A stretch of 64,000 nucleotides of DNA from an uncultured Gammaproteobacteria bacterium (lineage in GTDB: Bacteria; Pseudomonadota; Gammaproteobacteria; GCA-001735895). Positions within the stretch are counted from its first letter, which is position 1. Every line of letters begins with the position of its first letter. The stretch spans positions 8,812 through 72,811 of the forward strand of contig CAYZQE010000001.1 of assembly GCA_964480635.1 (NCBI GenBank). Reading direction: 5' to 3'. The notes below the pieces were generated by a model that had not been told where the DNA came from, searched no databases, and saw only the letters and a list, made by a program, of their open reading frames with translations. A program made the position numbers and the translations under genes. Positions 16,428 through 54,603 of this stretch are shown piece by piece.

Positions 16428-16483
16428 TATTTAGTTGAATATCACATCAAAAGCTAAGCCCAACTAGGCTCAACATTTTTCGA

Positions 16484-17311: not shown

Positions 17312-17313
17312 GT

Positions 17314-17877: not shown

Positions 17878-17909
17878 TTTGTATCCTCATTATTATTTTT
17901 ATATCTGGC

Positions 17910-18818: not shown

Positions 18819-18820
18819 GA

Positions 18821-19312: not shown

Positions 19313-19318
19313 AATTTA

Positions 19319-21883
19319 CTAACCTTTTATTTTTTGCTCAATCGACGTAAGGTTTGCCACCACTTGCGTTGAGCATACAGTTACTTTGTTATATAGGTTT
19401 TCTGCGCTATCGCAATCGCCACCTTCCTTTGCATCAATAATAGCTGAAATATAGCTGTGCATTTCTTTATGCGTTTTTTCCATATCCAGCAATTCTTGAT
19501 GCTCGCCATAAACTCTTAAGCCATCGGCATACAACCATTTACCTAAATCGCAATGTCTATGTGACACGGCCTGCTCTTGTGTTAACTCTTCTTTATCATC
19601 TAGAAATTTTCTTAGTCGTTCTTTCCATGCTAAGTGCTTCGTTTTAGCTAATTTAAAGTCTAAGGTACTTGTGGCAACTGCTTTAACAATATCTGTTTTA
19701 AAGAACTGCATTTGGCCATTCATGGTATTCGACTGCTCAGACATATGTGTACTGGCTGCTGACGCTTCTTCTGCTAAAGCGGCATTTTGCTGTGTTAAAT
19801 CATCAAGGCCGGTTAGGGCTTTACTAACTTGATCAACCCCTGTTGATTGCTCGGCACTAGCCGCTGCAATTTCACCAACAATATCGCTTACTTTTTTTAC
19901 ACCTAAAACAATGTGACCTAATGTTTCACCTGATTCATTCACTAAGTCAGAACCTGCTTTCACCTTATTAACACTATCTTGAATTAACTCTTTAATTTCT
20001 TTTGCAGCGGTTGCTGAACGCTGTGCTAAATTACGCACTTCAGTTGCTACAACTGCAAAACCACGGCCTTGATCACCGGCTCTAGCAGCTTCTACACTCG
20101 CATTAAGCGCCAACAAATTAGTTTGAAAAGCAATTTCGTCAATGACGCTAATAATTTCTGCTATTTTACTACTCGATTGGTTAATCTCTTCCATCGCATT
20201 AATAGCATCAGCAACCACATGACCACCCTTATCTGCAGTGTCCCCTGCTTCTGCTGCTAATTGGTTTGCTTGCGCGGCATTACCCGCGTTTTGTTTTACT
20301 GTCGAAGTTATTTCTTCCATGCTTGCCGCCACTTCTTCTAGTGCAGTTGCTTGCTGCTCTGTACGGTTTGATAAATTATTGTTACCCGAAGCAATTTCTT
20401 GCGAGGAATTATTAATCTGATTCGATGAATCCCTAATGCCATTCACGATATCTCTTAATTTAACAATCGTCTTATTCACATTATCTTTAACTTCACCGAA
20501 CACACCATCATAAGCTCGATCAATCGTTTGCCCTAGATTACCACCAGCAACGCCTGACATAACTTGATTAACATCTGCAAAGGTTGCTTCTAACACATCC
20601 AACATTTCATTTAAGTTAACTGATAAATTTTTGAAAAAACCAACCTGGCTAGTCGCATTCAGTCGCGAACTTAAATTACCCGATTGAGCAGCAACCACTA
20701 GATGCTCAATCTCTTTTTCAAAATTACGCTCAATTGTTAAATCACGCCACTCCAAGATAGTGCCAACGCGCTGGCCATCTTGAATCACGGGACTCGAATT
20801 AATACTTAATACTCGACGACCTAATGACTTTTCTTCTGTATGACTATTTTTTAATCCATCTAATAATCGACGTTGTTTTACCGCATCATTATAAAAGATG
20901 TCTAAAGGTGTGCCCAAAAGTTTTTCGGCATTAAAGCCTGTTACTTGCTGAGAAATATCGTCAGTCGCATCTTTAAACATCGACTTAATCGTTTCATTTA
21001 AATAGATAATATTATAATTTTGATCAACTAACATAACGTTCGATCCCGCATTATCTAACGCTGATTGAATACGCTGGCCAGCTGTTGCTTTTTCACGCGC
21101 ATCCATCACATCAAAGCCTAAACGCACTTGCAATGTAAACAACCGTCTTAATAAACTACCCATATCATCTTTACGAGAAATATCAGTCCAGTTAAAATAT
21201 TCTCCTCGACTTATCTCTGATATTTTATCGTATAGATAGTCCATTGGTTTACTGATTTTTTTTACTAAAAAAATACCTAAGACCAAAAAGATAATCGCTA
21301 AACCTAACATTAGCTGAGCGACAAATATCACCTCGACCCCCCTCATCAATAGGATACTCATGAGTAACATGACGAGAGAGAAAAAACCGACTCCAATATA
21401 TTGAAGACCAACAGATGATAACGACTGAAACTTTTCTATTAACGCACCAAAGCCTGTTTTTGTTAAAGTTTCTTGGCCTGAATTAACCTGTTGATAAAGC
21501 TTTTCTGCATCGCTTATCTGTTGGTCTGTAGGTCGTGTTCTTACTGACATATACTCAACAATACTGCCATCCTGATAAATAGGCGACACATTGGCATTAA
21601 CCCAATAATAATCACCATTTTTAGCCCTATTTTTAATGGGTGCTGTCCATGGGATTTTCTTATTAAGATCATCCCATAAAGATTGAAATGCTTCTGATGG
21701 CATGTCTGGGTGTCGTACTAAATTATGATTCTTACCCATCAATTCGTCATAACTAAACCCACTAATTTCCATGAATTCTTTATTACAATAGGTAATAACC
21801 CCTTTTAAATTTGTTTTTGAAACCAAAATAGACCCTTCACGCATTTTGACTTCGTTATTCGTTACTGGCTCATTAACTTTCAT
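19319..21883 (-). CDS. methyl-accepting chemotaxis protein with an Aer-type N-terminal PAS (FAD) domain, TM hairpin, HAMP, second PAS, MA domain and a C-terminal CZB (chemoreceptor zinc-binding) domain
   Basis: The N-terminus ([33 protein letters not shown]...[16 protein letters not shown]) closely matches the E. coli Aer PAS. The MA tip is [30 protein letters not shown]. The C-terminus ([11 protein letters not shown]...H...H) is a CZB motif. Confidence 0.85.
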
Positions 21884-21908
21884 TCTTTAAATTCCTTAGA
21901 GTTAATTA

Positions 21909-24641: not shown

Positions 24642-24674
24642 GAATTAAATCTCTCTCATCCTACTTATTATGAC

Positions 24675-27389: not shown

Positions 27390-27449
27390 TCTTCCACCTT
27401 TCTTACTTTAAGTTTTTACTTTTTTGTATTATATTTTCATGACTGAGTT

Positions 27450-27959
27450 CTATTCTTCTTCTATCTCAACAACTTCATCATATAAATCAGGTGATTTTAA
27501 AAATTCAACGGCATCAAACAGCATGACCATTTGTCCATCTGAATCAGCTAGACCCTTTATAAAGTCAACATCAATACGGTCTGAAAACTCTGGAGTTTTT
27601 CTTATTTTACTTTTTTCAGCATTCAGAACATCTGAAACAGCATCAACAACAATACCTGCAATACGCTCTTTTTCTTGAACTTCGCCTCGCAAAATAATTA
27701 AGACTGTTGTTGCTTCATAAGTCACATGCTCACAATGGCTTTTCATTCTCATATCAACGATGGGGACTGCTGTACCACGCAAATTAAGAACGCCTTTGAT
27801 ATATTTTGGTGTATTAGGAACTCGGGCTACCGACTCCCATCCTCTTATTTCTTGAACACTCAGTAATTTAACACCATATATTGACTCACCAACTGTATAG
27901 GTTAGATATTGTTCAAAGTCTTCATTTTGAGATAAATCCTGGGTTGCTTCTTCACTCAT
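27450..27959 (-). CDS. cheW: chemotaxis coupling protein CheW
   Basis: It is 169 aa with a CheW-like domain. Confidence 0.9.
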   Translation of the reverse strand: MSEEATQDLSQNEDFEQYLTYTVGESIYGVKLLSVQEIRGWESVARVPNTPKYIKGVLNLRGTAVPIVDMRMKSHCEHVTYEATTVLIILRGEVQEKERIAGIVVDAVSDVLNAEKSKIRKTPEFSDRIDVDFIKGLADSDGQMVMLFDAVEFLKSPDLYDEVVEIEEE

Positions 27960-27961
27960 TG

Positions 27962-30076
27962 TTATGCCGCCACATCAGTTTTATCGCTCTTCTTTTCAAG
28001 CTTTTTGTTCAGAGTTAAAATCCCGGGCATATCGATAATAAGCGCGACAGAACCATCACCTAAAATAGTGGCCCCTGAAAAACCTTCTATTTTTTTGTAA
28101 TTACTTTCTAATGATTTGATCACCACTTGCTGCTGCCCTAGTAATTCATCAACAAACAAACCTACGTGTTTGTTTTCAACTTCAACAACTACCAATAGCC
28201 CATCTTTTAGATCAACAGGTTTTTCTAGTTCAACACCAAAAATGTCATGCAGCTTTATAATGGGGACGTATTCTTCTCGTAGCTTGAATGTTTCTCCCTG
28301 CCCCCCAACCATATTGACCATATCAGGTTGTATTTGGATTGACTCTACAATTGAAATAATAGGGATAATGTAATTTTCATTACCAACAGAGACTGTTTGT
28401 CCATCGACAATTGCTAGGGTTAATGGCAAACGAATTCGCATTGTACTGCCTTTTCCTAACGCTGAATCAATCTCGATTGAGCCCCCAAGCTCTAAGATAT
28501 TTCGACGAACCACATCCATGCCAACACCACGGCCAGACACATCACTAACAACCGCAGCTGTTGAGAAGCCCGGCAAGAAAATCAATTCAAATATTTGACG
28601 ATCAGTTAAAATATCACCTTCGATAATAAGCCCCTTTTCGACTCCTTTTTTATATAAAACATCCTTATCCATACCTTTACCATCATCGATAATTTCGATA
28701 ACAATATTACCGCCTTGGTGATAGGCATTTAAATTTATTGTTCCTAACTCTTCTTTACCTGCTGCCACACGATCTTCTGGCATTTCAATACCATGATCTA
28801 AACTGTTACGCACAAGATGTACGAGAGGGTCACCAATTTTTTCAATAACTGTCTTGTCTACTTCAGTTGCCTCACCCGAAAGAATCAATTCTATCTTCTT
28901 GCCCATTTTTCCTGATAAATCACGAACCAAACGTGGAAAACGTGAAAAGGTAAAACTAATCGGCATCATTCGAACTTGCATCACGCTTTCTTGCAGCTCA
29001 CGTGAATTACGCTCTAACTGCATCAAACCATCGCGTAAACGGTCTATTTCAGCGACATCAATTGATCCTCTTTCTTCAATGTTTTCACCAATTAAACCTA
29101 GCATTGATTGAGTAATCACTAACTCACCCACCATATTGATCAAAGCATCAATTTTATCGGTATCTACTCTTATAGAGGCATTAGCTTGAGCTGCTGGTTT
29201 TTTACTTCCTCTTCGGTCATTCTTACGGCGATCACCACCTTTGGCCTTTTCACTGTCTGCACTATCACCATCTCTTCTTTGAGGAATGGGTAATTGTGAC
29301 TTTTCTGCCGGCTTCACCCCATCTGCTTGTGCATTGCCATCTTGTAATGCAATAATTTCTAAATCACAAAGGTCTTCAACCCAAGCAAAAATCTCACTGA
29401 GCACATCTTTATCTGCATCCGTTATTATTTTCAATTCCCAACTGATATAACTTTGTTCAGCATCGAGCATTTCAAAGGGCGGTATCGCATTTAAATCTGT
29501 TGTCAGCTCTACTTCACCTAGTGATGAAAGCTCTCTTATTAATGGTAATGGATCATTACCCGTATGAAAAATATCGCTGTTTGGCTTAAACTTTATCAAC
29601 CAACCTTGGCCAGGCGAGTCACCTGCCGTTACGGCTTTAGTAGGAGCGTTTGTTTCTTCTTTAGCCGCTAAATTTTCGCCAGCAGCTTCATTACCCAGTT
29701 CTTTTTCGAGCATTGCTTTATGCTCTTTAACACGTGCTTCGTCTGGGTCATCGCCTTCTTGCGCGGCTTCTAGCATTTCTCTTAAACAGTCGGTTGACTT
29801 TAATAGAAGGTCTGAATTTGCAACAGTAACATCACGCTTACCATCTCGCATTTCATCAAGAAGCGTTTCCATGACATGGGTAAACGAAGCGACTTCCATA
29901 AAGCCGAAAGTACCCGAACCACCCTTTATAGAATGAGCGGCTCTAAAAACACTATTAATAACCTCAGAATCAGCTTCACCTGGCTCTAAATCCATTAATC
30001 CGGTTTCCATAATTTCGATGCCTTCGAAACTTTCTTCAAAAAACACCTGATGAAACTGAGCCATATCTATCGACAT
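27962..30076 (-). CDS. cheA: chemotaxis histidine kinase CheA (P1-P5)
   Basis: It has a P1 HPt (FRAAHSIKGGSGTFGF), P3 dimerisation (IRVDTDKIDALINMVGELV), a P4 HATPase with G1/G2 boxes, and a P5 CheW-like domain. Confidence 0.9.
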   Translation of the reverse strand: MSIDMAQFHQVFFEESFEGIEIMETGLMDLEPGEADSEVINSVFRAAHSIKGGSGTFGFMEVASFTHVMETLLDEMRDGKRDVTVANSDLLLKSTDCLREMLEAAQEGDDPDEARVKEHKAMLEKELGNEAAGENLAAKEETNAPTKAVTAGDSPGQGWLIKFKPNSDIFHTGNDPLPLIRELSSLGEVELTTDLNAIPPFEMLDAEQSYISWELKIITDADKDVLSEIFAWVEDLCDLEIIALQDGNAQADGVKPAEKSQLPIPQRRDGDSADSEKAKGGDRRKNDRRGSKKPAAQANASIRVDTDKIDALINMVGELVITQSMLGLIGENIEERGSIDVAEIDRLRDGLMQLERNSRELQESVMQVRMMPISFTFSRFPRLVRDLSGKMGKKIELILSGEATEVDKTVIEKIGDPLVHLVRNSLDHGIEMPEDRVAAGKEELGTINLNAYHQGGNIVIEIIDDGKGMDKDVLYKKGVEKGLIIEGDILTDRQIFELIFLPGFSTAAVVSDVSGRGVGMDVVRRNILELGGSIEIDSALGKGSTMRIRLPLTLAIVDGQTVSVGNENYIIPIISIVESIQIQPDMVNMVGGQGETFKLREEYVPIIKLHDIFGVELEKPVDLKDGLLVVVEVENKHVGLFVDELLGQQQVVIKSLESNYKKIEGFSGATILGDGSVALIIDMPGILTLNKKLEKKSDKTDVAA

Positions 30077-30274
30077 GCTTTATACCCTCTATTTTTATTT
30101 GCTTTTATCATTATTTTTTTAGGCATGACTTGCGTAATGCATTGAAACTTTCATTATTTATAGAACAAATGCGAGATTTTGCACAAATTTAATTAGTCTT
30201 TTTATCGACAGATCAACTTTTATCTGTAGAAAAAGTTATAATTTAATTTTTCTAATCTAATTTTTAAAATCAGT

Positions 30275-31474
30275 ATGCAAAAGCACAGTGTAAAAATAGG
30301 TAATATTTTTGTTGGTGGGAATCATCCCGTCATGATCCAATCAATGACCAATACAGATACTGCTGACATTAATAAAACAGTAGAGCAAATTAAAGCTTTA
30401 GCTGATGCGGGTTCTGAATGCGTGCGGGTGACGGTTAACAACAATGAATCTGCTGCTGCCATACGTCCTATTAAAGAAAAGCTGTTACAACAAAATTACA
30501 CCACACCTATCATTGGTGACTTTCATTTCAATGGACATAAATTATTAAAAAAATATCCTGAGTGCGCTGAGTTTTTAGATAAATACAGGATCAACCCAGG
30601 CAATGTTGGCAAAGGAAAAAAAAGAGACTCTCAATTTCATGAAATGATTGAAACTGCTTGTCAATTTAATAAACCTGTCCGCATTGGGGTCAACTGGGGG
30701 AGTTTAGACCAATCCCTTTTAGCGAATCTTCTGGATACTAACTCTGCTTTAAAAATACCGAAACCTTTAACCGACATCAATAAAATTGCGGTTATTCAAT
30801 CAGCCCTTGAGAGTGCAAAAATGGCTGAACATATTGGTTTAGGTAAGGATCAGATTATTATTAGTTGCAAAATGAGCCGAGTGCCTGACTTAATTGATGT
30901 GTATGAAAAATTAAACGCCCAATGTGACTATGCCTTACATTTAGGTTTAACTGAGGCGGGCATGGGCAGTAAAGGCATCGTATCTTCTACTGCTGCACTG
31001 TCTATTTTACTCAGGCAAAACATAGGTAACACGATTAGAATCTCGTTAACACCTGAACCTGGTGAAGCCCGAACAAAAGAAGTGCAAGTGGCTCAAGAGA
31101 TATTACAATCACTCGATTTACGATCGTTCACACCGAGTGTTGTTTCATGCCCCGGTTGTGGTCGAACGAGCAGTGAGTATTTTCAAGTGCTTGCTAAAGA
31201 TATTCAGCAACAGCTCAACGACAATATGTCTAGCTGGAAATACAGCCATCCAGGTGTCGAAAAAATGAACGTGGCGATTATGGGCTGCGTTGTTAATGGC
31301 CCAGGTGAAAGCAAACATGCCAATATTGGCATTAGCCTACCGGGAAATGGAGAGCTACCTGTCGCACCTGTTTATGAGGATGGTAAAAAAACAGTCACCT
31401 TAAAAGGTGACTCAATTGCTAATGAGTTTATGCAGTTAGTTGAAAATTATGTCGCTCGAACTTATTCGCAATAA
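30275..31474 (+). CDS. ispG: 4-hydroxy-3-methylbut-2-enyl diphosphate synthase (IspG/GcpE)
   Basis: Conserved IspG blocks are [49 protein letters not shown] and YEDG. It is on the opposite strand to all flanking signalling genes. Confidence 0.85.
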
Positions 31475-31506
31475 TTAAGCGACAGATTGTATTGCTTTGA
31501 ATATTT

Positions 31507-31812
31507 TTAAAGGATATTCAAAATCTCACAAGCCACTTCAAATTTAATAGGCACTGATCCTTCAATAGGAATAGAGCGAATAACAGATGCTCTTGCTTCC
31601 ATAGGCGGCGTAATCGAATTAACAGGCGTCAACTTCACCAATAATTCTGACTTAGGCTCAAACTCATCTTCTAACTCTAATAAAAAACCTTTCGCGCTTA
31701 AATTTTTAACACCACCTTCACCTGATCGACTATCTGCCTCACAGCAATACGTCATGACACATTCAATGGCCATCCTTTGGAAGTCGCGTTTTTCATCATA
31801 ATTATGATCCAT
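31507..31812 (-). CDS. single-domain PilZ protein (c-di-GMP binding)
   Basis: It has the RxxxR motif (RDFQRM) and the D/NxSxxG motif (NLSAKGF). It is 101 aa. Confidence 0.6.
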   Translation of the reverse strand: MDHNYDEKRDFQRMAIECVMTYCCEADSRSGEGGVKNLSAKGFLLELEDEFEPKSELLVKLTPVNSITPPMEARASVIRSIPIEGSVPIKFEVACEILNIL

Positions 31813-31827
31813 AAAATTTCCCCTCAG

Positions 31828-32142
31828 TTAAATTTTAAATAATTTACCAAAGTTGGCAACGTCTAATATTTTTTTAACATCTACGGATGTATTAACAATA
31901 TCAACTTTAGAGCTTTCCCCACCTGCATGTTCTCTCAGTAATAAAAGCATACCTAAAGCGGAGCTATCTAAATATTCAGTCGCCGACAGATCGACAACAT
32001 AATGCACACCATTCCCATCTGTTTCATCATATGATGTTCTAAATTCATCATATAACTGAAAGTCAAACTTACCTGATACTGATATTGTTACTTTTTTACC
32101 GCCATCTGCGATCGTACTATTTATTGCCATCAATGACTCCAT
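31828..32142 (-). CDS. STAS-domain protein (SpoIIAA-like anti-sigma factor antagonist)
   Basis: It is 104 aa and carries the conserved phosphorylatable-Ser region 'VDLSATEYLDSSALGMLL'. Confidence 0.7.
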   Translation of the reverse strand: MESLMAINSTIADGGKKVTISVSGKFDFQLYDEFRTSYDETDGNGVHYVVDLSATEYLDSSALGMLLLLREHAGGESSKVDIVNTSVDVKKILDVANFGKLFKI

Positions 32143-32200
32143 TACAATTTAATTTTTAATTTTTAATGCTTAATGTATAGCAGCTATTTCAGTTACTGCC

Positions 32201-32245
32201 ATAATTTTTAAACTTTTTAAACTTTTTAAACTTTTTAAACTTTAA
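32201..32245. repeat. 9-bp tandem repeat (taaactttt, about 4.5 copies) in the MCP-like/STAS intergenic region
   Basis: It is read directly from the sequence at 32201-32245, immediately 3' of the MCP-like stop and upstream of the STAS gene. Confidence 0.7.
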
Positions 32246-32249
32246 TTCC

Positions 32250-33458
32250 TTAAAATAATTCTATTTCACCTTCTTCCATCGAACTCTGTCCAACTGCCTT
32301 GTTAATAGGCGTAGACCATTCTTGCTTTAATACTTCTATGCTAGATTTAAATTCATTTAAAACTAATAAGGTATCTAGATCATTTACATTTGTATTTTCT
32401 TGTAACACATTCATTTGAGACTTTAAGTTTTGTACGAGATCATGCAAACGATTCACATGTTCGCCGCTATATTGAACAACTTGAGAAACGACATCTTCAA
32501 ATTGTAATGACAGTATAGCCACGCCGACTGATTTATTAATATCATCTGTTACTGCTGAAATTTTCTTTAGTTCCTCAGCTACATGTTCATCGTATCGACC
32601 AATATCATCTAACATTGAATCTACTCTATCTTTTGAAGATATTGTCTCTGTCATATCTCGAGACGCCATAGCCGTTACTAACGCTTTAGCCTCAGAAATA
32701 CCTGCTTTAGATTTAACAATAACAGTGCGTATCTTTTCACTAAAGTCATTTGAGTTTTTAGACAGATTACGTACTTCATCAGCAACAACAGCAAAGCCTC
32801 GACCCGCCTCACCCGCTCTAGCCGCTTCAATCGCTGCATTTAATGCCAATAAATTAGTTTGTTGGGCAATTTTACTCACATCATCAAGCAGCTTAAACGC
32901 CTGATCCATTTCTTTAGCAATATCATCAATGGTGTAAACCATTTTCATACTGCTTTGGCTGGTGGATAACAGCATTTGAATAAAGTGCTGCAATAGCTGA
33001 TTGGTCTCATCAACAAAACCACGCATATTAAAACTACCATTATCTTCATCTGGCTCAACCATGCCTAGAACTAGAGCGCCTTGAAGCTGGCTAAACTGAT
33101 TTAAATCTGTAAAGCTCCCGCCTAACTTACCCGTGGCATCAAGAACAACCGTATTAATTTGAGTGAGTGAATCTTTAATCTCATTTGTTTGACCTTCAAC
33201 TAAGCTGTTTAAACCCAACAATAAATCAAATAGTTCTTTAATAACGACACTATGAACTTGATCTGAAGATTCAATATCACTTAGTTTCTCTTCTTCAGTA
33301 TTAAGACCCAATAGAACACCTATAAATGCCACTAGGAGCAAACCATCTAAAAGTTCAAACGAACTTAGTAAACGAATAATAATAATGCTAAATACAGTCA
33401 CTGCACTGATTGCCAATAAACGATGTTTTAGCACAAATTGTTTTGTTAATAATTTCAT
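32250..33458 (-). CDS. membrane-anchored MCP-like signalling protein (two N-terminal TM helices with essentially no periplasmic domain, plus an MA domain)
   Basis: It has the conserved MA hairpin tip [37 protein letters not shown]. It is 402 aa and ends ...EEGEIELF. Confidence 0.75.
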
Positions 33459-34228
33459 TATGCCGTTACCATCGTACGGTGATTTAACAAATCATCCGCT
33501 AATTTGGCATAATCTAAGGCACCATTACTGCGAGGTTTATATTCAAAAATTGTTTGCCCAAAACTAGGACTTTCTGCCACGGGGGCGCATTCTCTCACTG
33601 GTGTCGCCAAAACTTGATTAGGAAAGTAACTCATTAATTTATCTTTAATTTCATTTGATAATCGACGCCTTACAGTGAAACGAGTAATAGCCACCCAAAT
33701 TTTAAGCGTTTTACCCATGTAGCTTTCTGTGCTTTTTATTGTTTTTAATAATTGAGATAAGCCATGTAATGCCAGATAATCACTAGACACAGGGATGACT
33801 ATTTCATCAGCAGCGAATAAGGCATTAAAGTTAAGCAAGCCTGAGGTTGGTGGGCAATCAAAAATAATAAAATCATATTGAGTACGAATACCTTCGAGTG
33901 CTTGCTGCAATAACTTGGCTTGAGAAGCACCCTTTGCTGATAACTTTTCAACCTCGGTTAATCTATATCCTGAAGGAATTAAGTCTAGGTTTTTTCGCAC
34001 CGTAACAATACTATCAACAATATCATCACCATCTAAAAACACATCGTCTATGCCAGCATTTTCGGGGTCTGTTTCACCTAAACTTACAGACAAATGGGAC
34101 TGAGGATCAAGATCAATGGCCAACACCTTATGGCCTTTAAGCGCGAATGAATAGGATAAATTAGAAGCAGTTGTTGTTTTTCCTACACCGCCTTTATTAT
34201 TTAAGACGGCTATGACACGAGTTTCCAT
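33458..34228 (-). CDS. ParA/MinD-family P-loop ATPase
   Basis: It has a deviant Walker A ([16 protein letters not shown]). It is 256 aa and overlaps the downstream MCP-like start. Confidence 0.8.
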
Positions 34229-34255
34229 GTGAATACTACACCATTTTATTTAAAA

Positions 34256-34618
34256 CTAACCCAAAGCGCGTTTTATCACTGACAGCAATTGGTCCGGATT
34301 AAAAGGCTTTACAATCCAACCAGTAGCTCCGGCATTTTTACCTGCCATTTTCTTATCTGCAGCTGATTCGGTTGTAAGCATTAATAAAGGAGTGAATTTA
34401 AAACTAGGTAGCTTTCTTAACTCTGCGATAAGAGATATACCATCCATATTTGGCATGTTTACATCCGTTATCACTAGATCAAAACTCTTTGTTTTCGCAA
34501 TATTTAATGCGACCAACCCATCTTCGGCATCAGTCACATCATAACCAGCACTTTTTAATGTAAATGAAACCATTTGTCTCATTGATGCTGAATCATCAAC
34601 AGCTAAAATTGTAGCCAT
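34256..34618 (-). CDS. single-domain response regulator (CheY-like receiver)
   Basis: It is 120 aa with a REC domain. Its residues include DD (ILAVDDS), the phospho-acceptor D (LVITDVNMP) and the T/K pair. Confidence 0.8.
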   Translation of the reverse strand: MATILAVDDSASMRQMVSFTLKSAGYDVTDAEDGLVALNIAKTKSFDLVITDVNMPNMDGISLIAELRKLPSFKFTPLLMLTTESAADKKMAGKNAGATGWIVKPFNPDQLLSVIKRALG

Positions 34619-34787: not shown

Positions 34788-35783
34788 TTAACCGACAATA
34801 ATTCTGTTTTTTCCCGCTTTTTTCGCCTTATAGAGCGCTTTATCTGCGCGTTTAAATGACCTCTTAAAATCATCTCCAGCCAAGACCATCGTCACACCAA
34901 TACTCACACTGATTTCAATACTTGGATCACAATCAGGTAAGGTTAAATTATCAATGCCTAATCTCACTCGCTCTGCCACGTCTAACGCACCTTGCATATC
35001 CGTTTGAGGTAACGCACTGACGAATTCATCCCCCCCATAACGATAGAGTAAATCTGTATTTCTCACCGCTTCTTGTAAAACAACCCCAACATCTTGCAGC
35101 ACTCGATCTCCGGCATCATGGCCGCATAAATCATTGATAACTTTAAATCCATCTAAATCCATAACCATCATTGCCATAGAGTGTTCATGCCTTTTTACTA
35201 AGCCAATTTCTCTTGGCAAGAACTTTTCCATTGCCGTACGATTTCCTAAATGTGTCAGTGGATCGACATAAGCAGATTTTAGAGCTGTCTGATACATCAA
35301 TGCGTTTTTTACTGGATATACTAAACCACACAGATAATCTTCAAACTCACAGACTTCATTAGTCGAAAATCGACTATTTCGATAGATCGTTATTTCACCT
35401 AATAACTGCTCGCGTAATGTAATGCGATAATGCAAGCTAAACCGATCGACATTCCCCATGCTCACTGGTGCATCAACCCTCTCTGAAATAAACCGATAGG
35501 CATTATGGGGAATTAAATTCTGGATTTCACCCGAAAAAGAGCTGATCACATCAGTGATTTCTAAAGTTCGTGATAGCAAATCAGACAATTGTAGTATTTT
35601 TATAAACTTTTTATCACTGGTTACAAGTTCACTTTTACGCGAGTCTAAAGCAATAACTTGAGCATTTCGTGATTTGCTTGTCACATTTAATATCGTCGGT
35701 GTATTCATAAGCTCTATACCTAAATTCAATAATATCTTTAAACATGCGAAAGTCATGCCAATAAAAAAATCATAGGGAATCAA
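34788..35783 (-). CDS. GGDEF-domain diguanylate cyclase with an uncharacterised N-terminal sensory region
   Basis: It has a 'RYGGDEF' active-site motif. The N-terminal start is uncertain because an internal ATG is possible. Confidence 0.8.
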   Translation of the reverse strand: MIPYDFFIGMTFACLKILLNLGIELMNTPTILNVTSKSRNAQVIALDSRKSELVTSDKKFIKILQLSDLLSRTLEITDVISSFSGEIQNLIPHNAYRFISERVDAPVSMGNVDRFSLHYRITLREQLLGEITIYRNSRFSTNEVCEFEDYLCGLVYPVKNALMYQTALKSAYVDPLTHLGNRTAMEKFLPREIGLVKRHEHSMAMMVMDLDGFKVINDLCGHDAGDRVLQDVGVVLQEAVRNTDLLYRYGGDEFVSALPQTDMQGALDVAERVRLGIDNLTLPDCDPSIEISVSIGVTMVLAGDDFKRSFKRADKALYKAKKAGKNRIIVG

Positions 35784-35986: not shown

Positions 35987-37639
35987 TTGCCCACCATGGA
36001 AATTAAGGCCACAAACACTGCCACCTTGAATTCTAAAACTGTTCATAAGCTACAAGATTTACTCATTAAGTTTGAACACAATTTATTTAAAGCAATTATT
36101 AGCGCTAAAGTTAGCAATGAAACATTTGTCATCAATAGCAAGGCAGGTTCATTACAAATTAGCAGCAAACTTAATCTACAAATTGGCGATGAACTCACAT
36201 TAAATGTTAAGCTCGATAAAGCGTCACAGACTTTGTCTTTAAATATTTCTAAAATTGAGCGCCCTGTTGTTAAAACCCAGAATCTACAAACTTTAAACGC
36301 AACGCCGATCACTATTAGTCATAAAAATGATATAAAGCAGTTACCCCATACTCAAGAGCACTTCGTTGCGAAGATTATCAGTATCGATAAAAAACATATT
36401 TATCTTCAAGATTTAAAAGGACAAAATTTTTCGGTAACGAAAGCAAACCTTAGTCATCTTTCATCTAATTTTCAAAAAGGTGAGCACGCCATCATCAAGT
36501 GGACATCCCCCGAAAAGGCAGAAATTCGGCCTATCGTTAAAGAGCATTTATTACACCAAGTCCAACGTCAATTATTACCTCAGCAAACAAGCAACCAACA
36601 AACTCATCAACGTTTAACCCAAGCCGCCTTTAAGCTATTTCAGGCCATCAATAACGAGATCATAAGCAAGAACAACGCATCGACAACATCTGCTGCTTCA
36701 GTCCACGCCAAACCAACCGAGAGACAGGCACCTTTGGCTATACTTAAGGCTCAACAAACGCATAGTACTGTAAAAGAAAATATCGATGTGAAGCTTGGCA
36801 ACCTCAAAGAAGCTATAAAACCAAGCCCATCAGTTGCACCACAGGTTTCAAAACCAAGCAATAGTAACAACGTCATTATTAAGCATACTCAAGATACTAT
36901 TGAGACCATTAAAATTGATTTACAACGTCTTTTAACGACACATAAAATCACACCCAATCTACTTAAGTCAGAGACTATTCTAAAGCTTCTAACTGACTTA
37001 AATATCATTAGTAAATCAATCCTCCATGACTCAAGCAATAAAACATTTATTCACAAATTATCTCTTATTACCCAGTCTATCGACCTTGTTTTAAATGCAT
37101 CAGACGATATGAAAAAGGGCGCCAAGCAAAATAGTAACGATGAATTATTGAGTGAACTATTAAAAACAACTTTAAAGGATGCTAAACAAACGATTGAATT
37201 GACTATTCATAAAATGCTTTTTCAAACGGCTTCATCCAAATTAAACCAAGAAATAAACTCTTCATTATTAATCAATACCCAAATTCCTTTTGAAATAGAC
37301 AAAAAAACGAAAGATATCGCTTTAAAAATCAAACAACATAAAAATGATAGCCATGATAAAGAGGATACTTGGGAAATTCATTTATCCTTAGAAATGGGTT
37401 TATTAGGATTAATTAGCACAAAGATTATCCTTAAAGATAGTTTAGATGTCTCTGTTACCTTTTGGGCTGAACTGTATAAAACCAAACAACTCATCGATGA
37501 AAAAAAGAATGTTTTTCATCGGCAAATGACTAAAGCTGGGTTTAACTTAAGTCACATCAATATATTTCTTGGAAAAAAAATTGATGAGGTGCCACCTATT
37601 CAAATTAGCGACAAACAATTTATTGATATCAATGTCTAA
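35987..37639 (+). CDS. Q/T/K-rich protein, possibly a flagellar hook-length control (FliK)-like protein
   Basis: It is 550 aa and low-complexity. I recall similar 'FliK-like' genes paired with FlhB-C-like genes next to cheW in Vibrio and Shewanella. I cannot confirm the family from the sequence alone. Confidence 0.35.
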   Translation: MPTMEIKATNTATLNSKTVHKLQDLLIKFEHNLFKAIISAKVSNETFVINSKAGSLQISSKLNLQIGDELTLNVKLDKASQTLSLNISKIERPVVKTQNLQTLNATPITISHKNDIKQLPHTQEHFVAKIISIDKKHIYLQDLKGQNFSVTKANLSHLSSNFQKGEHAIIKWTSPEKAEIRPIVKEHLLHQVQRQLLPQQTSNQQTHQRLTQAAFKLFQAINNEIISKNNASTTSAASVHAKPTERQAPLAILKAQQTHSTVKENIDVKLGNLKEAIKPSPSVAPQVSKPSNSNNVIIKHTQDTIETIKIDLQRLLTTHKITPNLLKSETILKLLTDLNIISKSILHDSSNKTFIHKLSLITQSIDLVLNASDDMKKGAKQNSNDELLSELLKTTLKDAKQTIELTIHKMLFQTASSKLNQEINSSLLINTQIPFEIDKKTKDIALKIKQHKNDSHDKEDTWEIHLSLEMGLLGLISTKIILKDSLDVSVTFWAELYKTKQLIDEKKNVFHRQMTKAGFNLSHINIFLGKKIDEVPPIQISDKQFIDINV

Positions 37640-38063: not shown

Positions 38064-38540
38064 TTAAAACCCTGACATATCGCCCCATTCGGATTCAGAT
38101 AGTAGTTTATTTAAATCAACCAAAATTAATAATTGCTCTCCTCTGCTAACAACACCATCAATATACTTAGAGGTGTCATCATTACCAACATTAGGAGCCG
38201 TTTCAATTTCTGAGCGTTTAATATCGACAACTTCAGCAACGCTGTCTACCAATATGCCTATCGTATGTGTACTAGCCTCTATAACGATGATACGTGAAAG
38301 ATCATCATCCTCTTTAGACATTAAACCAAAACGAGTACGTGCATCGATAACACTGACCACATTACCACGTAAATTAATAATGCCAATCACATAATGTGGT
38401 GCACCAGGAACTGGTGCTACTTCTGTTTCTCGCAGTACTTCTTGCACTTGCATAACATTAATGCCGTAAATCTCACCTTCTAAGGTAAAAGTCACACATT
38501 GAAAATCGTCTTTTGTATCATCGTTGTCTTGTTGAGCCAT
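38064..38540 (-). CDS. cheW: chemotaxis coupling protein CheW (flagellar cluster)
   Basis: It is 158 aa with a CheW-like domain. Confidence 0.9.
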   Translation of the reverse strand: MAQQDNDDTKDDFQCVTFTLEGEIYGINVMQVQEVLRETEVAPVPGAPHYVIGIINLRGNVVSVIDARTRFGLMSKEDDDLSRIIVIEASTHTIGILVDSVAEVVDIKRSEIETAPNVGNDDTSKYIDGVVSRGEQLLILVDLNKLLSESEWGDMSGF

Positions 38541-38729: not shown

Positions 38730-39482
38730 TTAGTCAGTCATTCTTTCAATATCATCTGTTTTTATAAGTTTTTTTCGAATGGCTTCGGGGTTTAATACCA
38801 GTGCTAACGTTTTTTTTATCGTCCCTAAAGACAAGCGATCCTTCTCTCCTGTATGCCATTTAATATCATCTTCATTTAACGTCACTACGTCCAATAATTC
38901 ATCACAAGAAATAGCCCAGTCATTATCTTTAAAAACTAATAAATGACTTGGGTTAAAGTCATCATTATCCTTGCCTTGTACTATACCCATTAATAATGCC
39001 GCCGTATCAGCCACGCGCACATTACTATCCCTATGTTTCAATAAGCCTTTAAAATAATTAGGGCTATACGGTAATTGAGTTAAGCGATTGCCAAAAGGCA
39101 CAACGCTACCCATTCGTATTAAGGGAATAGAGAGTAAATGCCCTTTCACTTTAAACATTAGGCACTGAACTGGGAAGTTTAACTCTTCTTTTAGTGTTCG
39201 TTCTTGAGCTTTCTTTTTTTGTAGCTTTATTGATGTCTTTTCTAATTCAGTCTCATTGTCATTAACCGATACTTCTGCCGTAATAACAACATCATCTTTA
39301 GTCAACTGCTTTAACGCCGTTAAAGGCGTCTCTAAAACATGAATATTATGGTTTTCATTATTGGCAACAAATTTAACATTTGGCTCGGCAACCGGTTCTG
39401 TCGCCTCTTGTAATAAATGATCAAGATAGCTTTCTACCGCTGTGTTAGCATCAAGCAATTTGCTGGGTTTTATTTTTTTCAT
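38730..39482 (-). CDS. parP: ParP-like protein (C-terminal CheW-like domain) of the ParC/ParP chemotaxis-array positioning system
   Basis: It is 250 aa with a CheW-like C-terminal region. It lies between the ParA-like parC and cheW, as in Vibrio cluster II. Confidence 0.55.
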   Translation of the reverse strand: MKKIKPSKLLDANTAVESYLDHLLQEATEPVAEPNVKFVANNENHNIHVLETPLTALKQLTKDDVVITAEVSVNDNETELEKTSIKLQKKKAQERTLKEELNFPVQCLMFKVKGHLLSIPLIRMGSVVPFGNRLTQLPYSPNYFKGLLKHRDSNVRVADTAALLMGIVQGKDNDDFNPSHLLVFKDNDWAISCDELLDVVTLNEDDIKWHTGEKDRLSLGTIKKTLALVLNPEAIRKKLIKTDDIERMTD

Positions 39483-40260
39483 CTTCTGTTCGCTGCTGTA
39501 TGCCTAATAAAAAATCAAGCAATTGACGGTACGCAATACTACCTCGCGCTTTAGGGTCATACATAGATAATGGCTTGCCAACCTTGCTTGCGTCTCTAAA
39601 TTTTGTATCTATTGGAATGACAGAACCCCATACATTAAAACGATATAGCTCTTTCATTTGCTTTAATGCATCAATAGATGCTCTGGTTCTTTTATCGTAC
39701 ATGGTTGGGATAATCATATAAGGCGTTTTAGTATGCAATGATTTTTCAACCATCTCTAAAGTATGAGTCATACGCTCTAAACCTTTTAACGATAAGAAGT
39801 CTGTTTGCGCTGGAATTAATAACTGATCGCAAGCAGCTAAGGCATTAATCATTAAAATACCTAACATAGGCGGGCAATCAATCACACAATAAGCAAAACG
39901 TGATGAGACCGCTTTTATTGCCTTAGCAACAACTAAACCCTTACCCTGCCCTACGCCCATTTGGCGATCTAAGGTCGCTAATGCAGTCGATGCCGCAAAT
40001 AAATAGGTGTTTTTAATATTCGTTGGTAGTAACAATTTTGCGATATCAACTTGGGATTCAGTTGGGTTTGCAAACAGATTATAAATCCCTGTTTCCATAT
40101 CATCTGGATCATATCCTAAATAACTTGTTAACGAGCCATGAGGATCTAAATCAACCAATAAGGTTCGTTCATCGCCTTGGCATAAATGCCCCGCTAATGT
40201 AACAGCAGTCGTTGTTTTACCAACACCACCTTTTTGATTGATAATTGCCCAAGTTTTCAT
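39451..40260 (-). CDS. parC: ParA-family ATPase ParC-like (chemotaxis array positioning)
   Basis: It has a deviant Walker A ([17 protein letters not shown]). It is 269 aa and sits between cheA and parP. Confidence 0.7.
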   Translation of the reverse strand: MKTWAIINQKGGVGKTTTAVTLAGHLCQGDERTLLVDLDPHGSLTSYLGYDPDDMETGIYNLFANPTESQVDIAKLLLPTNIKNTYLFAASTALATLDRQMGVGQGKGLVVAKAIKAVSSRFAYCVIDCPPMLGILMINALAACDQLLIPAQTDFLSLKGLERMTHTLEMVEKSLHTKTPYMIIPTMYDKRTRASIDALKQMKELYRFNVWGSVIPIDTKFRDASKVGKPLSMYDPKARGSIAYRQLLDFLLGIQQRTEDEKNKTQQIA

Positions 40261-40342
40261 AATTTTTAATCAAATAACAAATCATTATTAAGGGAACCTC
40301 TGACTAAGTCCATAATTTTTATCTAAGCCAAATTTTACTCAG

Positions 40343-40498
40343 CTAGGCGTAGCATTGCAACGTCATCTAGATACCGTAAGATGCTAGAACGACGTTGAGT
40401 GAAATTTGGCAACGACCCGAAGGGCGAGTTATCAAGCCACTCTCTCCGTCGTTCCAACTTTCACTAAGGACTCGTCATTAGCTTCAAGTTGCGCCTAG
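40343..40498. other. structured non-coding element (about 155 nt) bounded by inverted repeats ctaggcg / cgcctag with nested internal hairpins; candidate REP/MITE-like element or small RNA
   Basis: The pairs read from the sequence are ctaggcg...gcaac with gttgcgcctag, caacgtc with gacgttg, tctag with ctaga, and gaacgacg with cgtcgttc. No ORF is present. Confidence 0.45.
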
Positions 40499-40550
40499 GA
40501 TAGAATGGCTTGATAGATCGTAAAAGTTTATGGAGTTAATCAGGATCTCC

Positions 40551-42608
40551 TTAAGTGTAAACTTTCAATAAGCCAGGGACATCTAAAATGATAGCAATGT
40601 TACCATCACCTGTAATTGTTGAACCGGCAAGCCCTGGTAATCCATGCAGCATCGCACCTAAAGGTTTGATAACGACTTCTTCTTGACCAATAACTTGATC
40701 TACAACAAACCCGACGGATGAACTCCCCACTTGAACCATAATCACCTGAGGGTCTCCCTCATATTCAAGATGAGTTTCATTCTTCCCTAACAACCATTTT
40801 CTTAAATAGAAAATAGGTGGCGCTTTACCTCGATTAAGCACCACTTCTTTACCATCTATAATACTCGTTTTTTTAGAGCTTAATTCAAAAATTTCATTGA
40901 CGATAGACAAAGGTAATGCAAATTTACGATCCCCTAGCTGAACCATTAATGTAGGTAAAATAGCTAATGTTAATGGGACTTTTATCGTTAAAACAGTGCC
41001 TTTACCAAGAGCAGATTCAATATCAATGGTGCCATTTAATTGAGTAATCTTAGTTTTAACAACATCCATACCCACGCCACGACCAGAGACATCTGATATC
41101 GCTTCTTTTGTGGACAAGCCGGGCAAGAAGATAAGGTCAAAACAGCCTTTATCGTCTAGGCGTGAGGCCGTTTCAGCATCCATTAAACCTTTCTCAATCA
41201 CTTTATTACGCAACACTTCAGGATCCATCCCAGCGCCATCATCGGTGATTGATAAAAGGATATGATCACCTTCTTGTTTAGCCGCTAAAATAACCTTTCC
41301 TTCTTGAGATTTTCCTGCTTTTTCGCGTATCGAAGGAATTTCAACGCCATGGTCAACTGAATTTCTAACTAGATGTACTAATGGATCGGCTAATGCCTCG
41401 ACTAAATTTTTATCTAAATCGGTTTCTTCACCAACCAATTCTAAACTAATTTCTTTTTTTAAGGTTCTTGCCAAGTCACGAACCACTCGAGGAAAACGAC
41501 CAAACACTTTTTTAACGGGTTGCATTCGTGTTTTCATGACCGCCGTTTGTAAATCAGCGGTAACAACATCTAAGTTTGATATTGCTTTATGAACGCGCTC
41601 ATCATCAATCGTTGCTCTTAATGTCGTCAAGCGATTACGTGCCAGCACGAGCTCTCCAACTAAATTCATAATGTCATCAAGCCGAGCAGTATCGACACGA
41701 ACAGTTGTTTCACCTTTTAACGCACCAGAAGGTTCTTTTTTAGCCGGTGCTACTTTAGCTTTAATGGCTGGTTTCTTGATTACTGGATTAGGTTTCTTTT
41801 CAACTGGAGCAGCTTTGGCTGCCTCTTTAGCCTTTAGGGCTGGGCCTTTTCCAGCCCCATGCATATCATCAAGTAAACTTTCAAATTCGTCAGATGACAT
41901 TGCATCACCTGAATTTTCTGGCGGAGGTGTTGCAGTTGGTTTTTTTGCAGTGCTCTCGACCGAAGATTTTGGCGCTGTACCCTTGCCATGAATATCATCT
42001 AATAGTGATTCAAATTCATCATCAGATATATCGTTACCTTGAGCGGGCGCTGGAGTTTCTTTAACTACTGGTGCGCCGGCTGATCCATGCAGAGCATCTA
42101 AAAGCGATTCAAATTCATCATCAGATATATCATCCCCACCACCAACATGTTCGACAACTGGCGGTGCTGTCGCTTCTGACTCTTGCGCAGCAGTAGCGTC
42201 GGGCTCTGCAGGGGCATCACCTGGGGTCTGCATATCAATTAATTCTTGTAATAGCGCAGGGTCGGCTGGCGTAGGGTCTTCACCAGAGCGAATTTCCCCA
42301 AACATTTTAGTCACCTCATCCAAGACGCGTAAAAACGCATCCATTTTTTCGCTGTCTAAAGTAATCTCATTATTACGCAATAAATTGAAAACATCTTCAG
42401 ATTTATGGCATACCTCAACCAAGCTGGTTAAGGCTAAAAAACTGCCACCACCTTTTATTGTATGAAATCCTCTAAAGATCGTATTTAGCAAATCAGCATC
42501 ATCAGGAGATTGCTCTAAATCAACCAATTGCTCATTTAGCTCTTCTAAAATCTCACCTGCTTCAACTAAAAAGTCTTGCAGAATTTCATCTTCTAGATCT
42601 ATTGCCAT
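40551..42608 (-). CDS. cheA: chemotaxis histidine kinase CheA (flagellar cluster); the P2 region is replaced by three repeats of a FliM-N-terminus-like peptide and a KPAA-rich basic linker
   Basis: It has a P1 HPt (FRGFHTIKGGGSF), P3 (VRVDTARLDDIMNLVGELV), P4 and P5. The linker repeats are DISDDEFESLLDALHG, DISDDEFESLLDDIHG and AMSSDEFESLLDDMHG. Confidence 0.9.
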   Translation of the reverse strand: MAIDLEDEILQDFLVEAGEILEELNEQLVDLEQSPDDADLLNTIFRGFHTIKGGGSFLALTSLVEVCHKSEDVFNLLRNNEITLDSEKMDAFLRVLDEVTKMFGEIRSGEDPTPADPALLQELIDMQTPGDAPAEPDATAAQESEATAPPVVEHVGGGDDISDDEFESLLDALHGSAGAPVVKETPAPAQGNDISDDEFESLLDDIHGKGTAPKSSVESTAKKPTATPPPENSGDAMSSDEFESLLDDMHGAGKGPALKAKEAAKAAPVEKKPNPVIKKPAIKAKVAPAKKEPSGALKGETTVRVDTARLDDIMNLVGELVLARNRLTTLRATIDDERVHKAISNLDVVTADLQTAVMKTRMQPVKKVFGRFPRVVRDLARTLKKEISLELVGEETDLDKNLVEALADPLVHLVRNSVDHGVEIPSIREKAGKSQEGKVILAAKQEGDHILLSITDDGAGMDPEVLRNKVIEKGLMDAETASRLDDKGCFDLIFLPGLSTKEAISDVSGRGVGMDVVKTKITQLNGTIDIESALGKGTVLTIKVPLTLAILPTLMVQLGDRKFALPLSIVNEIFELSSKKTSIIDGKEVVLNRGKAPPIFYLRKWLLGKNETHLEYEGDPQVIMVQVGSSSVGFVVDQVIGQEEVVIKPLGAMLHGLPGLAGSTITGDGNIAIILDVPGLLKVYT

Positions 42609-42633: not shown

Positions 42634-43380
42634 TTAAAAACCCAGACTTGCTAATAAATCATCAACATCATCTTGATTTGTTGCTACATCGTCTTTACTC
42701 GCTGATGGTAACTGTGGACCATGCGCCTTAGTACCATCTTTCGGCTGATCTTTAGAATCCTTTAGCTTTGCACCAGAAATAGCGACTAATCTGACTAATT
42801 TTTCTTCGACTTCCTTAACCATGGTAATGACTTGTTTAATCATTTGCCCCGTTAAGTCCTGATAATCTTGAGCCAACATGATTTCAGTCATGGATTGATT
42901 GATTTTTGCAGTCTCATTAGGAATAGAAGTCAAAAATTCATCAATGTCGTCACTTAGAACAACAAACTCTTCTTTTGATAGCTCTCTATTACGAAATTGC
43001 TCCCAACGATTTTTAATCTTACTGGCATGATCAGAAAAATTTCCGACAACGGTCATTGTTTCTTCAGCGCCATTCATTGTTTTGTGGGCGGCTTCGTTGG
43101 TTTTTTCGACAATAAAATTTAATCGCTCTGTCGCATCGGGTATTTCATTTTCGGCTAATTCTGCCACTCGATCATCGTCGCTAAAAGCATTTATCGATTC
43201 GTGTATTTCACGCGTTAATTTTCCTAGTTCTTGAAATAAAGACGACTCTCTTAACGTCGTTAACTCACCGACCAAACGATTGACTTCATCAGTATCTTTT
43301 TTATCAATGGCTTTATTCAAGCCTTGAATACGCTCTAAATAATCATCACTTAAAAAATCATCACTGGATTCCGTATTCAT
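42634..43380 (-). CDS. cheZ: CheY-P phosphatase CheZ
   Basis: It has the active-site region '[16 protein letters not shown]' and the C-terminal CheY-binding tail '...[10 protein letters not shown]'. It is 248 aa. Confidence 0.85.
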
Positions 43381-43763
43381 CCATCTATCCTCTCAAATAT
43401 TTTTTCTATTTTTTCTTTAAGAGTGATGGCAGTGAACGGCTTCACAACATATCCGTTTACGCCTGCTTGTGCGGCTTCAATAATTTGTTCACGCTTAGCC
43501 TCTGCTGTAACCAACAAAATTGGCATTGTAGAAAGCTTATCGTCAGCCCTTACTTTTTTTAACAACGTCAAGCCATCCATACCAGGCATATTCCAATCAG
43601 TGACTAAAAAATCATAGTTTCCTGATTGTAATAAAGGCCATGCCGTTTGCCCATCATCAGCTTCTGATGTGTTATTGAACCCCAAATCACGTAGAAGATT
43701 CTTTATGATTCGGCGCATTGTCGAAAAATCATCAACAATTAGTATCTTCATATTTTTATTCAT
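43377..43763 (-). CDS. cheY: chemotaxis response regulator CheY (the start is probably the internal Met, [12 protein letters not shown])
   Basis: Its REC domain carries [12 protein letters not shown]...D...[11 protein letters not shown]...K. Its stop overlaps the cheZ start. Confidence 0.9.
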
Positions 43764-53544: not shown

Positions 53545-54603
53545 TTATTTTTTCTTGCGGCTTTTAGCAATATCACTGGATGAGGCTCTATTTCCTTTTA
53601 AGGCTGCTGTAATTTCCTTATTCTCCATATCAAACAGCTCAATTATTTCGGTGACAGATATTGCTGCCTTATCATTATGCTGACCATACTTGCCCCTTAA
53701 TACCGGCATTTCTTCTGCTAGTAATAGAACACTTTCTGGCATATCAAAAGGGATGATGTCGCCTTCTTTTAAATCAACTAAGTCTGAAAACTTCATTTCT
53801 TTTTCACCCAGCAAAGCCGACACTTCGACTTTGGCGTGCATTAATTCTTCACGTAATAAAATAGCCCAACGCTCATCAGCCTCACCAAGGTCGCTCTGTA
53901 CGCCAGCATCTAGCATTGTTCTAATGGGTTCTATCATTGAATAAGGTAAAACAAAGTGGATGTCACCACCGCCACCATCCAGCTCGATATGAAAGCTTGA
54001 AACCACAATAACTTCTGAAGGGCTAACGATATTAGCCATATGGGGATTCACTTCATGACTGTGGTAAGAGAAATCAACGCTCATTACTGGCATCCAAGCT
54101 TTGACCATGTCGTCAAAAATCATATGCACGACTTTTTCTATGACTCGAAGTTCAGTATGAGTAAATTCTCGACCTTCTATTTTGGCGTGAATCGAACCAT
54201 CACCACCAAAAAAATTATCGACGATAATAAACACAAGCTTAGGATCCATCATCACTAAACCCGTACCGCTTAAAGGCTTCATCTTCATTAAGCTTAAGCT
54301 GGTAGGCACGAACAAACTGTGAATATATTCTGAAAACTTAACCATCTGAATACCATTCACCGAGAGTTCGGCTGTTTTACGCAACATATCAAAAACACTG
54401 ACACGAAAATAACGAGCAAAACGCTCATTGATCATTTCAAGGGTCGGTAAACGTCCTCTAACGATCCGTTCTTGATTATTAAAATCAAAACTTCTGGCCT
54501 CACCATCTTCAACTTCATCTTCAGACGTGGTATCAACCGCACCGTCATCGACACCATGCAATAAGGCATCAACTTCATCTTGGCTTAAAATATCAGTGCT
54601 CAT
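53545..54603 (-). CDS. fliM: flagellar motor switch protein FliM
   Basis: It has the N-terminal CheY-P binding peptide 'ILSQDEVDALLHGV'. It is 352 aa. Confidence 0.9.
   Translation of the reverse strand: MSTDILSQDEVDALLHGVDDGAVDTTSEDEVEDGEARSFDFNNQERIVRGRLPTLEMINERFARYFRVSVFDMLRKTAELSVNGIQMVKFSEYIHSLFVPTSLSLMKMKPLSGTGLVMMDPKLVFIIVDNFFGGDGSIHAKIEGREFTHTELRVIEKVVHMIFDDMVKAWMPVMSVDFSYHSHEVNPHMANIVSPSEVIVVSSFHIELDGGGGDIHFVLPYSMIEPIRTMLDAGVQSDLGEADERWAILLREELMHAKVEVSALLGEKEMKFSDLVDLKEGDIIPFDMPESVLLLAEEMPVLRGKYGQHNDKAAISVTEIIELFDMENKEITAALKGNRASSSDIAKSRKKK

Follow-up and report, generated by a model that had tools for sequence, protein, structure and literature searches.

Domain architecture of the flagellar-cluster CheA

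The flagellar cluster in a 64,000-nucleotide stretch of DNA from an uncultured gammaproteobacterium (the whole stretch is called the window here, and all positions refer to it) includes a cheA gene (40551..42608, minus strand), which encodes an F6-type histidine kinase of 685 amino acids (aa) according to its open reading frame (ORF), its Pfam domains and its sequence matches in the PDB. We analysed the segment joining the P1 and P3 domains of this kinase, which contains three short repeats and which we think rather probably serves to tether CheA to the protein ParP. Pfam recognised Hpt (residues 8-99), H-kinase_dim (301-360), HATPase_c (408-547) and CheW (554-682), and no domain in residues 100-300. 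Similarly, sequence matches in the PDB were confined to aa 2-118 (P1) and 268-680 (P3-P5), the linker between P1 and P3 being unmatched even against full-length E. coli CheA and an E. coli P1-P2 construct; no relevant structure was obtained either when the repeat region was searched against PDB sequences.

CheA was modelled by AlphaFold2 with an alignment of 120 homologues. The P1 (Hpt) domain, aa 1-128 (42225..42608, minus strand), was predicted to form five helices (8-33, 38-57, 61-78, 86-107 and 117-126) with a pLDDT of about 90, and the P3-P4-P5 core, also delimited by Pfam and the PDB matches, occupied aa 300-685 (40554..41711, minus strand). The domain limits proposed in an earlier sequence-only reading were thus partly revised: the beginning of P3 near residue 300 was maintained, whereas the end of P1, placed there at about aa 110, moves to about aa 126 because of the fifth helix. 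Residues 131-306 were modelled as a low-confidence chain with pLDDT <50 outside three short helices (163-173, 196-206 and 239-250), which coincided with the repeats and whose blocks had pLDDT values of 67, 58 and 77, respectively. No strand was predicted in residues 127-306.

As a positive control we modelled the second, E. coli-like CheA of the window (27962..30076, minus strand) by AlphaFold2 with 68 homologues, and a compact unit was obtained between its P1 and P3 domains, composed of strand 158-165, helix 177-184, strands 188-194 and 212-218, helix 223-229 and strand 237-243 (block pLDDT 61-87). We take this beta-alpha-beta-beta-alpha-beta unit to be the four-stranded, two-helix P2 fold. 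When the Pfam search was relaxed to E values of up to 10, only spurious sub-threshold matches (GemA and SHOCT) located on the repeats were obtained in the linker of the flagellar-cluster CheA, and the P2 of the second CheA was also missed, so that the silence of Pfam is no evidence for or against a P2 and the structural comparison decides. The models agree with the sequence-only reading on this point: the flagellar-cluster CheA has no globular P2 between P1 and P3, with only three isolated helices of 11-12 residues predicted there, while the second CheA shows one. A disordered linker of about 175 residues joins P1 to P3, and three short amphipathic acidic helices are the sole conserved elements in it.

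An ORF of 106 residues was also noticed on the plus strand, antisense to the linker (41671-41991); the compositional bias of the opposite coding strand towards Ala, Pro and Lys most likely makes it an artefact.

The three repeats and the basic linker

Repeat 1 (DISDDEFESLLDALHG, aa 160-175; 42084..42131), repeat 2 (DISDDEFESLLDDIHG, aa 193-208, followed by KG; 41985..42032) and repeat 3 (AMSSDEFESLLDDMHG, aa 236-251, followed by AGKGP; 41856..41903), all on the minus strand, scored 38.4, 38.0 and 35.2 bits, respectively, with a profile derived from 299 distinct instances of the repeat, and each one contained one of the predicted helices (163-173, 196-206 and 239-250 in that order). When the profile was run over the six frames of the window, the next best match after these three (35-38 bits) reached 7 bits; the repeats are far beyond chance. 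Repeats 1 and 2 were identical at 14 of 16 residues, repeats 2 and 3 at 12 and repeats 1 and 3 at 11, and in the DNA they formed a three-copy family of 47 nt (41857-41903, 41986-42032 and 42085-42131) with 70-89% identity, in agreement with the three near-identical repeats that had been read from the letters at this position. This family was found by an interspersed-repeat search and was not detected by Tandem Repeats Finder, because the copies are spaced 99-129 nt apart. The hydrophobic face of the repeat helix consisted of F166, L169, L170 and L173 and their equivalents in the other copies.

A 12-mer (DISDDEFESLLD) was identical in repeats 1 and 2, whose DNA agreed at 89% over 47 nt (window 41985-42131). 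These two repeats were more alike in this CheA than are repeats 1 and 2 of orthologues at 73% identity, suggesting gene conversion between both copies in this lineage.

The repeats were followed by a stretch rich in Lys, Ala and Pro (aa 252-299; 41712..41855, minus strand), with 13 Lys, 12 Ala and 7 Pro in 48 residues and pLDDT <50, corroborating the KPAA-rich basic linker of the sequence-only reading. The succession of acidic helices and a strongly basic stretch would fit an intramolecular or array role, in which the helices fold on the basic linker, on P1, P4 or P5 or on CheW, tuning the mobility of P1 or the control of the kinase. The relatively high pLDDT of the repeat 3 block (77) in a monomer model points in the same direction, as does the fold that P5 and CheW share with the AIF domain of ParP. 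However, the basic linker was poorly conserved (majority-residue frequency 0.41) and published two-hybrid data point to ParP (PMC5706961), so we consider this role quite improbable.

Conservation of the repeats among related CheA proteins

Between one and four repeat copies were counted with the profile in all 320 related CheAs examined. Among the 120 closest homologues, 113 had three repeats, one had two and six had four. In 80 species-representative genomes, which included Pseudomonas, Vibrio, Shewanella, Marinomonas, Methylomonas, Methylophaga, Colwellia and others, two repeats were present in 10, three in 45 and four in 25, and from one to four were found in 120 homologues of a Thioalkalivibrio CheA. 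The nearest genome of the species set was a gammaproteobacterial metagenome-assembled genome (68% identity). The repeat number, which the sequence-only reading had proposed to compare among orthologues, does therefore vary, and the feature is not confined to this genome.

The repeat consensus was DEITDDEFEALLDxLHGKG, in which the residues E, F, L, L and D were essentially invariant. When the 120 closest homologues were aligned, conservation between P1 and P3 was limited to the columns of the repeats. Over 70 genomes, the majority-residue frequency was 0.65-0.80 in the repeats, 0.74-0.84 in the P1, P3, P4 and P5 domains and 0.24-0.27 in the spacers. Moreover, individual repeats could be recognised across genera (LLDALHG in repeat 1 and LLDxMHGKGKGP in the last repeat), and they are therefore old and not recent duplications. 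When 7,705 ORFs of the related loci were searched with the repeat profile, the top 257 matches were all CheA and the next one scored 8 bits. The repeats behave as a functional array of short linear motifs in a disordered linker.

Resemblance to the FliM and CheZ peptides

The sequence-only reading had likened the repeats to the N-terminal peptide of FliM (MSTDILSQDEVDALLHGV; 54550..54603 in the fliM ORF 53545..54603, minus strand). Another peptide to be compared is the C-terminus of CheZ (42637..42678, minus strand), CheY-P-binding by homology with E. coli CheZ, whose tail QD[DE]VDDLLSSLGF was conserved in 80 loci. The pattern [DE][DE][FIVLM][DE]xLL, which was chosen after the sequences had been seen, had five matches in the 74,551 six-frame residues of the window, one at the FliM N-terminus, one at the CheZ C-terminus and one in each repeat, when we roughly estimate with typical residue frequencies that about 0.4 would be expected by chance. 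Related loci, 1.1 million residues in all, gave 167 matches of the same pattern in CheA, 75 in CheZ and 12 in everything else. An ungapped BLOSUM62 scan of 58,391 positions in six frames with ISDDEFESLLD placed the FliM N-terminus first after the three self-matches, with a narrow lead of 26 against 24.

Profiles behaved otherwise. FliM and CheZ peptides were absent from the best 25 window matches of the CheA-repeat profile, and a profile of 65 CheZ C-termini left the CheA repeats unscored in the 7,705 ORFs of related loci. The likeness to FliM consequently stands for the acidic-hydrophobic-LL core, for which the FliM N-terminus was the top non-self match, and does not extend to cross-detection by profiles. 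Judged on these sequence comparisons, the core common to the repeats and to both peptides is real and rather specific, and in the literature searched this DEφDxLL signature has apparently gone unremarked.

The parC and parP genes and the proposed role of the repeats

The gene order fliA-cheY-cheZ-cheA...parC-parP-cheW was met in the window, inside the flagellar cluster. The cheZ gene (42634..43380; Pfam CheZ) was directly upstream of cheA, preceded by cheY (43377..43763, 128 aa; Pfam Response_reg), whose product had a majority-residue frequency of 0.86 across 70 genomes. Directly downstream of cheA we found parC (39451..40260), encoding a ParA-like ATPase (Pfam AAA_31/CbiA/ParA) and present at the orthologous position in 76 loci, then parP (38730..39482), encoding a protein of 250 residues that carries a YLxxLL motif at the N-terminus and a CheW-like (AIF) domain (Pfam CheW 106-235) at the C-terminus, and cheW (38064..38540; Pfam CheW, E = 7e-38), all on the minus strand. 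The same order was found in essentially every complete locus among the 80 genomes; the cluster from fliA to cheA and cheW was always around repeat-bearing CheAs, and parC-parP was nearly always present too.

Only a gap of 290 nt (40261-40550) separated cheA from parC, with no cheB and no motCD there. In most related loci cheB follows cheA, and the closest relative (L001) has the same shortened layout. The only cheB and cheR genes of the window belong to a second chemosensory cluster.

A domain of CheA termed LID, for 'localisation and inheritance domain', is described by Alvarado et al. 2017 (PMC5706961) and Ortega et al. 2020 (PMC7534058), who cite Ringgaard et al. 2014, as the domain bound by ParP, reported for Vibrio, and as limited to CheAs associated with the ParC/ParP system; according to these authors, the ParP-LID interaction keeps CheA in polar arrays and the W305A change in ParP abolishes CheA binding. 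In Pseudomonas putida, CheA was reported to have three repeats of 19 residues (DEITDAEFESLLDQLHGKG) with the core EFExLLD, which overlap the LID, are exclusive to organisms with ParC and ParP and were recurrent ParP contacts in AlphaFold3 models (bioRxiv 10.1101/2025.10.27.684771). The feature is thus already described: the CheA of the window is a typical orthologue of the CheAs having a LID with EFExLLD repeats, whose documented partner is ParP. On balance we hold it to be rather probable that the repeats are the conserved core of the LID of F6-class CheA and that their role is ParP tethering.

In the literature, the CheW-like AIF domain of ParP is the part bound by the LID, and ParP binds ParC at the cell pole; in this way CheA is held in the polar array and the arrays are passed on to the daughter cells. 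Each of the repeats may be a separate docking site for ParP, and their repetition along a flexible tether could raise capture and avidity. Published experiments at the domain level favour this reading, together with the surrounding genes and the partial decay that the repeats show where parC-parP has been lost. The immediate neighbourhood of parC and parP, the conservation of the repeats at the level of the catalytic domains and the restriction of profile matches to CheA speak for it as well.

ParP was the least conserved protein of the operon, with an overall majority-residue frequency of 0.42. In its AIF domain, W189 was conserved in 66 of 70 genomes and W209 in all 70, and this near-invariant pair fits a conserved pocket for a conserved peptide; one of both residues probably corresponds to V. 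cholerae W305, needed for CheA binding. We had considered the argument that ParP, at 0.42, was too divergent to be the partner of a near-invariant motif, and it was weakened by these two (near-)invariant tryptophans.

The N-termini of the ParP proteins in the window and in loci L001-L080 carried a conserved acidic helix, [AL]xxY[LF]xxLL, represented in the window by AVESYLDHLLQE (39420-39482) and in Vibrio by LDDYFSALLDE. It is presumably the ParC-binding motif and follows the same amphipathic logic as the CheA repeats. From this resemblance the repeats might be supposed to bind ParC directly, imitating ParP; however, the best match of this ParP type reached 8 bits with the repeat profile, a weak resemblance, and the literature puts the CheA contact on the AIF domain of ParP and not on ParC (PMC5706961), which makes direct ParC binding very improbable.

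A Thioalkalivibrio-like clade (GCA_046484025.1, for example) provided loci in which parC-parP was missing. Three of its members (L082, L086 and L087) had the operon cheA-cheB-motA-motB-cheW, while the sister taxa T. sulfidiphilus and Ectothiorhodospira shaposhnikovii (L083 and L084) retained parC-parP at that spot. Three repeats, including two of the LLDELHGKG type, were present in the CheAs of the sister taxa, whereas those of the clade had only two or one; a single HGKG-type repeat was left, altered to LLDEFHGK or LVDEFHGT, and there was none in the member of 645 aa. Loss of the HGKG-type repeats fits a dependence on ParP, although it represents one evolutionary event and ParC and ParP may be encoded elsewhere in these genomes.

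Several points weigh against ParP tethering as the whole explanation. Repeat 1 (DEITD[DA]EFEALLDAI) was intact in the five CheAs of the clade out of five, despite a divergence to 68% identity, which suggests a role of this repeat that may be independent of ParP. The co-occurrence with ParC/ParP is inseparable from that with F6 CheY and CheZ, which these loci possess just as universally. The arrays of V. cholerae contain sub-stoichiometric ParP, with 1.4 ParP to 7.5 CheA (PMC7534058), and therefore most repeats cannot be occupied by ParP. Furthermore, the CheA side of the P. putida ParP models was inconsistent, and the contacts reported are those predicted by the authors (bioRxiv 10.1101/2025.10.27.684771). 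The putative equation of the LID with the repeats comes from the statement of that preprint and from the finding of no other conserved element in the linker.

A possible role in CheY docking

The sequence-only reading had proposed that the repeats, as multivalent FliM-like peptides, substitute for P2 in recruiting CheY. According to this explanation they imitate both the N-terminal peptide of FliM and the C-terminal one of CheZ, dock on the alpha4-beta5-alpha5 face of CheY or CheY-P and concentrate CheY near P1 in the stead of P2, possibly besides binding ParP. We consider it a tentative explanation, less probable than not being correct. The absence of P2 and the location of the repeats where P2 would be, next to P1, are consistent with it, and so is the core pattern common to two known CheY-P binders, with its five matches in the window. 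The shared positions are those of the CheY-contacting helix in the E. coli CheY-FliM and CheY-CheZ peptide structures. Repeats (0.8) and CheY (0.86) were both very conserved, repeat 1 persisted where the operon was without parC-parP, and the large excess of repeats over the scarce ParP in V. cholerae arrays (PMC7534058) would fit an abundant partner better. The F6 CheYs differ from the CheYs partnered with P2 on this same face, at R92, Q94 and V103 (PMC7184735), and the CheY of the window carries the F6 residues at those positions.

On the other side, the pattern was defined post hoc, the profile searches did not connect the repeats with either peptide, and the repeats are internal while the FliM and CheZ peptides are free termini. 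The invariant residues of the repeats (Phe and the LHGKG tail) point to a distinct specificity, and acidic φ-xx-LL helices were also present at the ParP N-terminus, so that helices of this kind serve several partners here and are not reserved for CheY binders. The form preferred by FliM-like peptides is CheY-P, a product and not the substrate. P2 is missing from more than half of the CheAs, which have an unstructured P1-P3 linker, and even E. coli can do without it (PMC10782961); therefore no substitute for P2 is required, and this counts against CheY docking. No paper proposing that the repeats dock CheY was found in the literature searched: Berry et al. 2023 (PMC10782961) do not describe the repeat motif, and the P. 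putida preprint (bioRxiv 10.1101/2025.10.27.684771) makes no mention of CheY.

ParP tethering and CheY docking could also coexist. The EFExLLD repeats may be bifunctional, tethering ParP and, at least in the case of repeat 1, docking CheY through the surface used by FliM and CheZ, the LID then replacing P2 functionally; we advance this with reserve, as a minority possibility.

Taken alone, the CheA of the window is an ordinary orthologue of a described feature and adds little. The F6 class, in which P2 is absent, is nevertheless the most widespread class of flagellar CheA and provides Pseudomonas, Vibrio, Shewanella and many other polar flagellates with their main kinase for flagellar chemotaxis. 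The sole conserved elements in the place of P2 share a core with the two known CheY-P-binding peptides, whose genes are a few kilobases distant. Binding of CheY by the repeats would put ParP tethering in competition or cooperation with substrate docking on one array of motifs, and the localisation of the arrays would be linked to signalling kinetics.

Second chemosensory cluster and neighbouring genes

A second, separate chemosensory cluster was found on the minus strand at 14729-34618. It began with genes for a REC protein (34256-34618), a ParA-like ATPase (33458-34228) and an MCP (32250-33458), and included the E. coli-like CheA with the P2 fold used above as control and a CheW (27450-27959). 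Three ORFs of 850-910 residues (19319-27389) came after them, of which one was scanned (19319-21883) and corresponded to a PAS/HAMP/MCP/CZB receptor. The cluster ended with another CheW (18821-19312), a STAS protein (17910-18818), CheR (16484-17311), CheD (15801-16427) and CheB (14729-15775).

Between the two chemotaxis clusters there were a gene for a GGDEF diguanylate cyclase (34788-35783, minus strand; Pfam E = 3e-44) and an ORF of 550 residues of low complexity, rich in Ser, Asn and Lys (35987-37639, plus strand).

Comparison with known systems

The second cluster resembles the ancestral F7-type systems (PMC7184735). The linker of the flagellar-cluster CheA occupies the same place in the protein as the P2 domain of E. 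coli and Thermotoga maritima CheA, with flexible linkers beside P1, and the recruitment of a partner is possibly a shared purpose. In those proteins, however, about 70-90 residues fold into an alpha/beta P2 domain, while here there are three isolated helices of 11-12 residues.

Like the repeats, the FliM N-terminus (LSQxEIDALL) and the CheZ C-terminus (QDxVDDLLxSLGF) are acidic amphipathic helices with the core [DE][DE]-φ-[DE]-x-L-L, and with CheZ the CheA repeats continue in register further, through xxL-[HG]-[GF]. Both peptides are terminal and single, whereas the repeats are internal (aa 160-251 of 685) and repeated, and the repeats have an invariant Phe instead of Val or Ile, Glu instead of Asp and an HGKG tail instead of the SLGF-COOH of CheZ.

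The closest known systems are the CheA LID of Vibrio cholerae and V. parahaemolyticus and the CheA of P. putida, which belong to the same family, with the same order cheY-cheZ-cheA...parC-parP-cheW and the same position between P1 and P3. The position 'between P2 and P3' given for the LID in a review does not suit the CheAs considered here, which are without P2. The cluster of the window differs from those of Vibrio and P. putida in having no cheB or motCD between cheA and parC and in the unusual likeness of repeats 1 and 2. The repeat consensus is DEITDAEFESLLDQLHGKG in P. putida and DISDDEFESLLDDIHGKG in the window, and three copies are present in both proteins.

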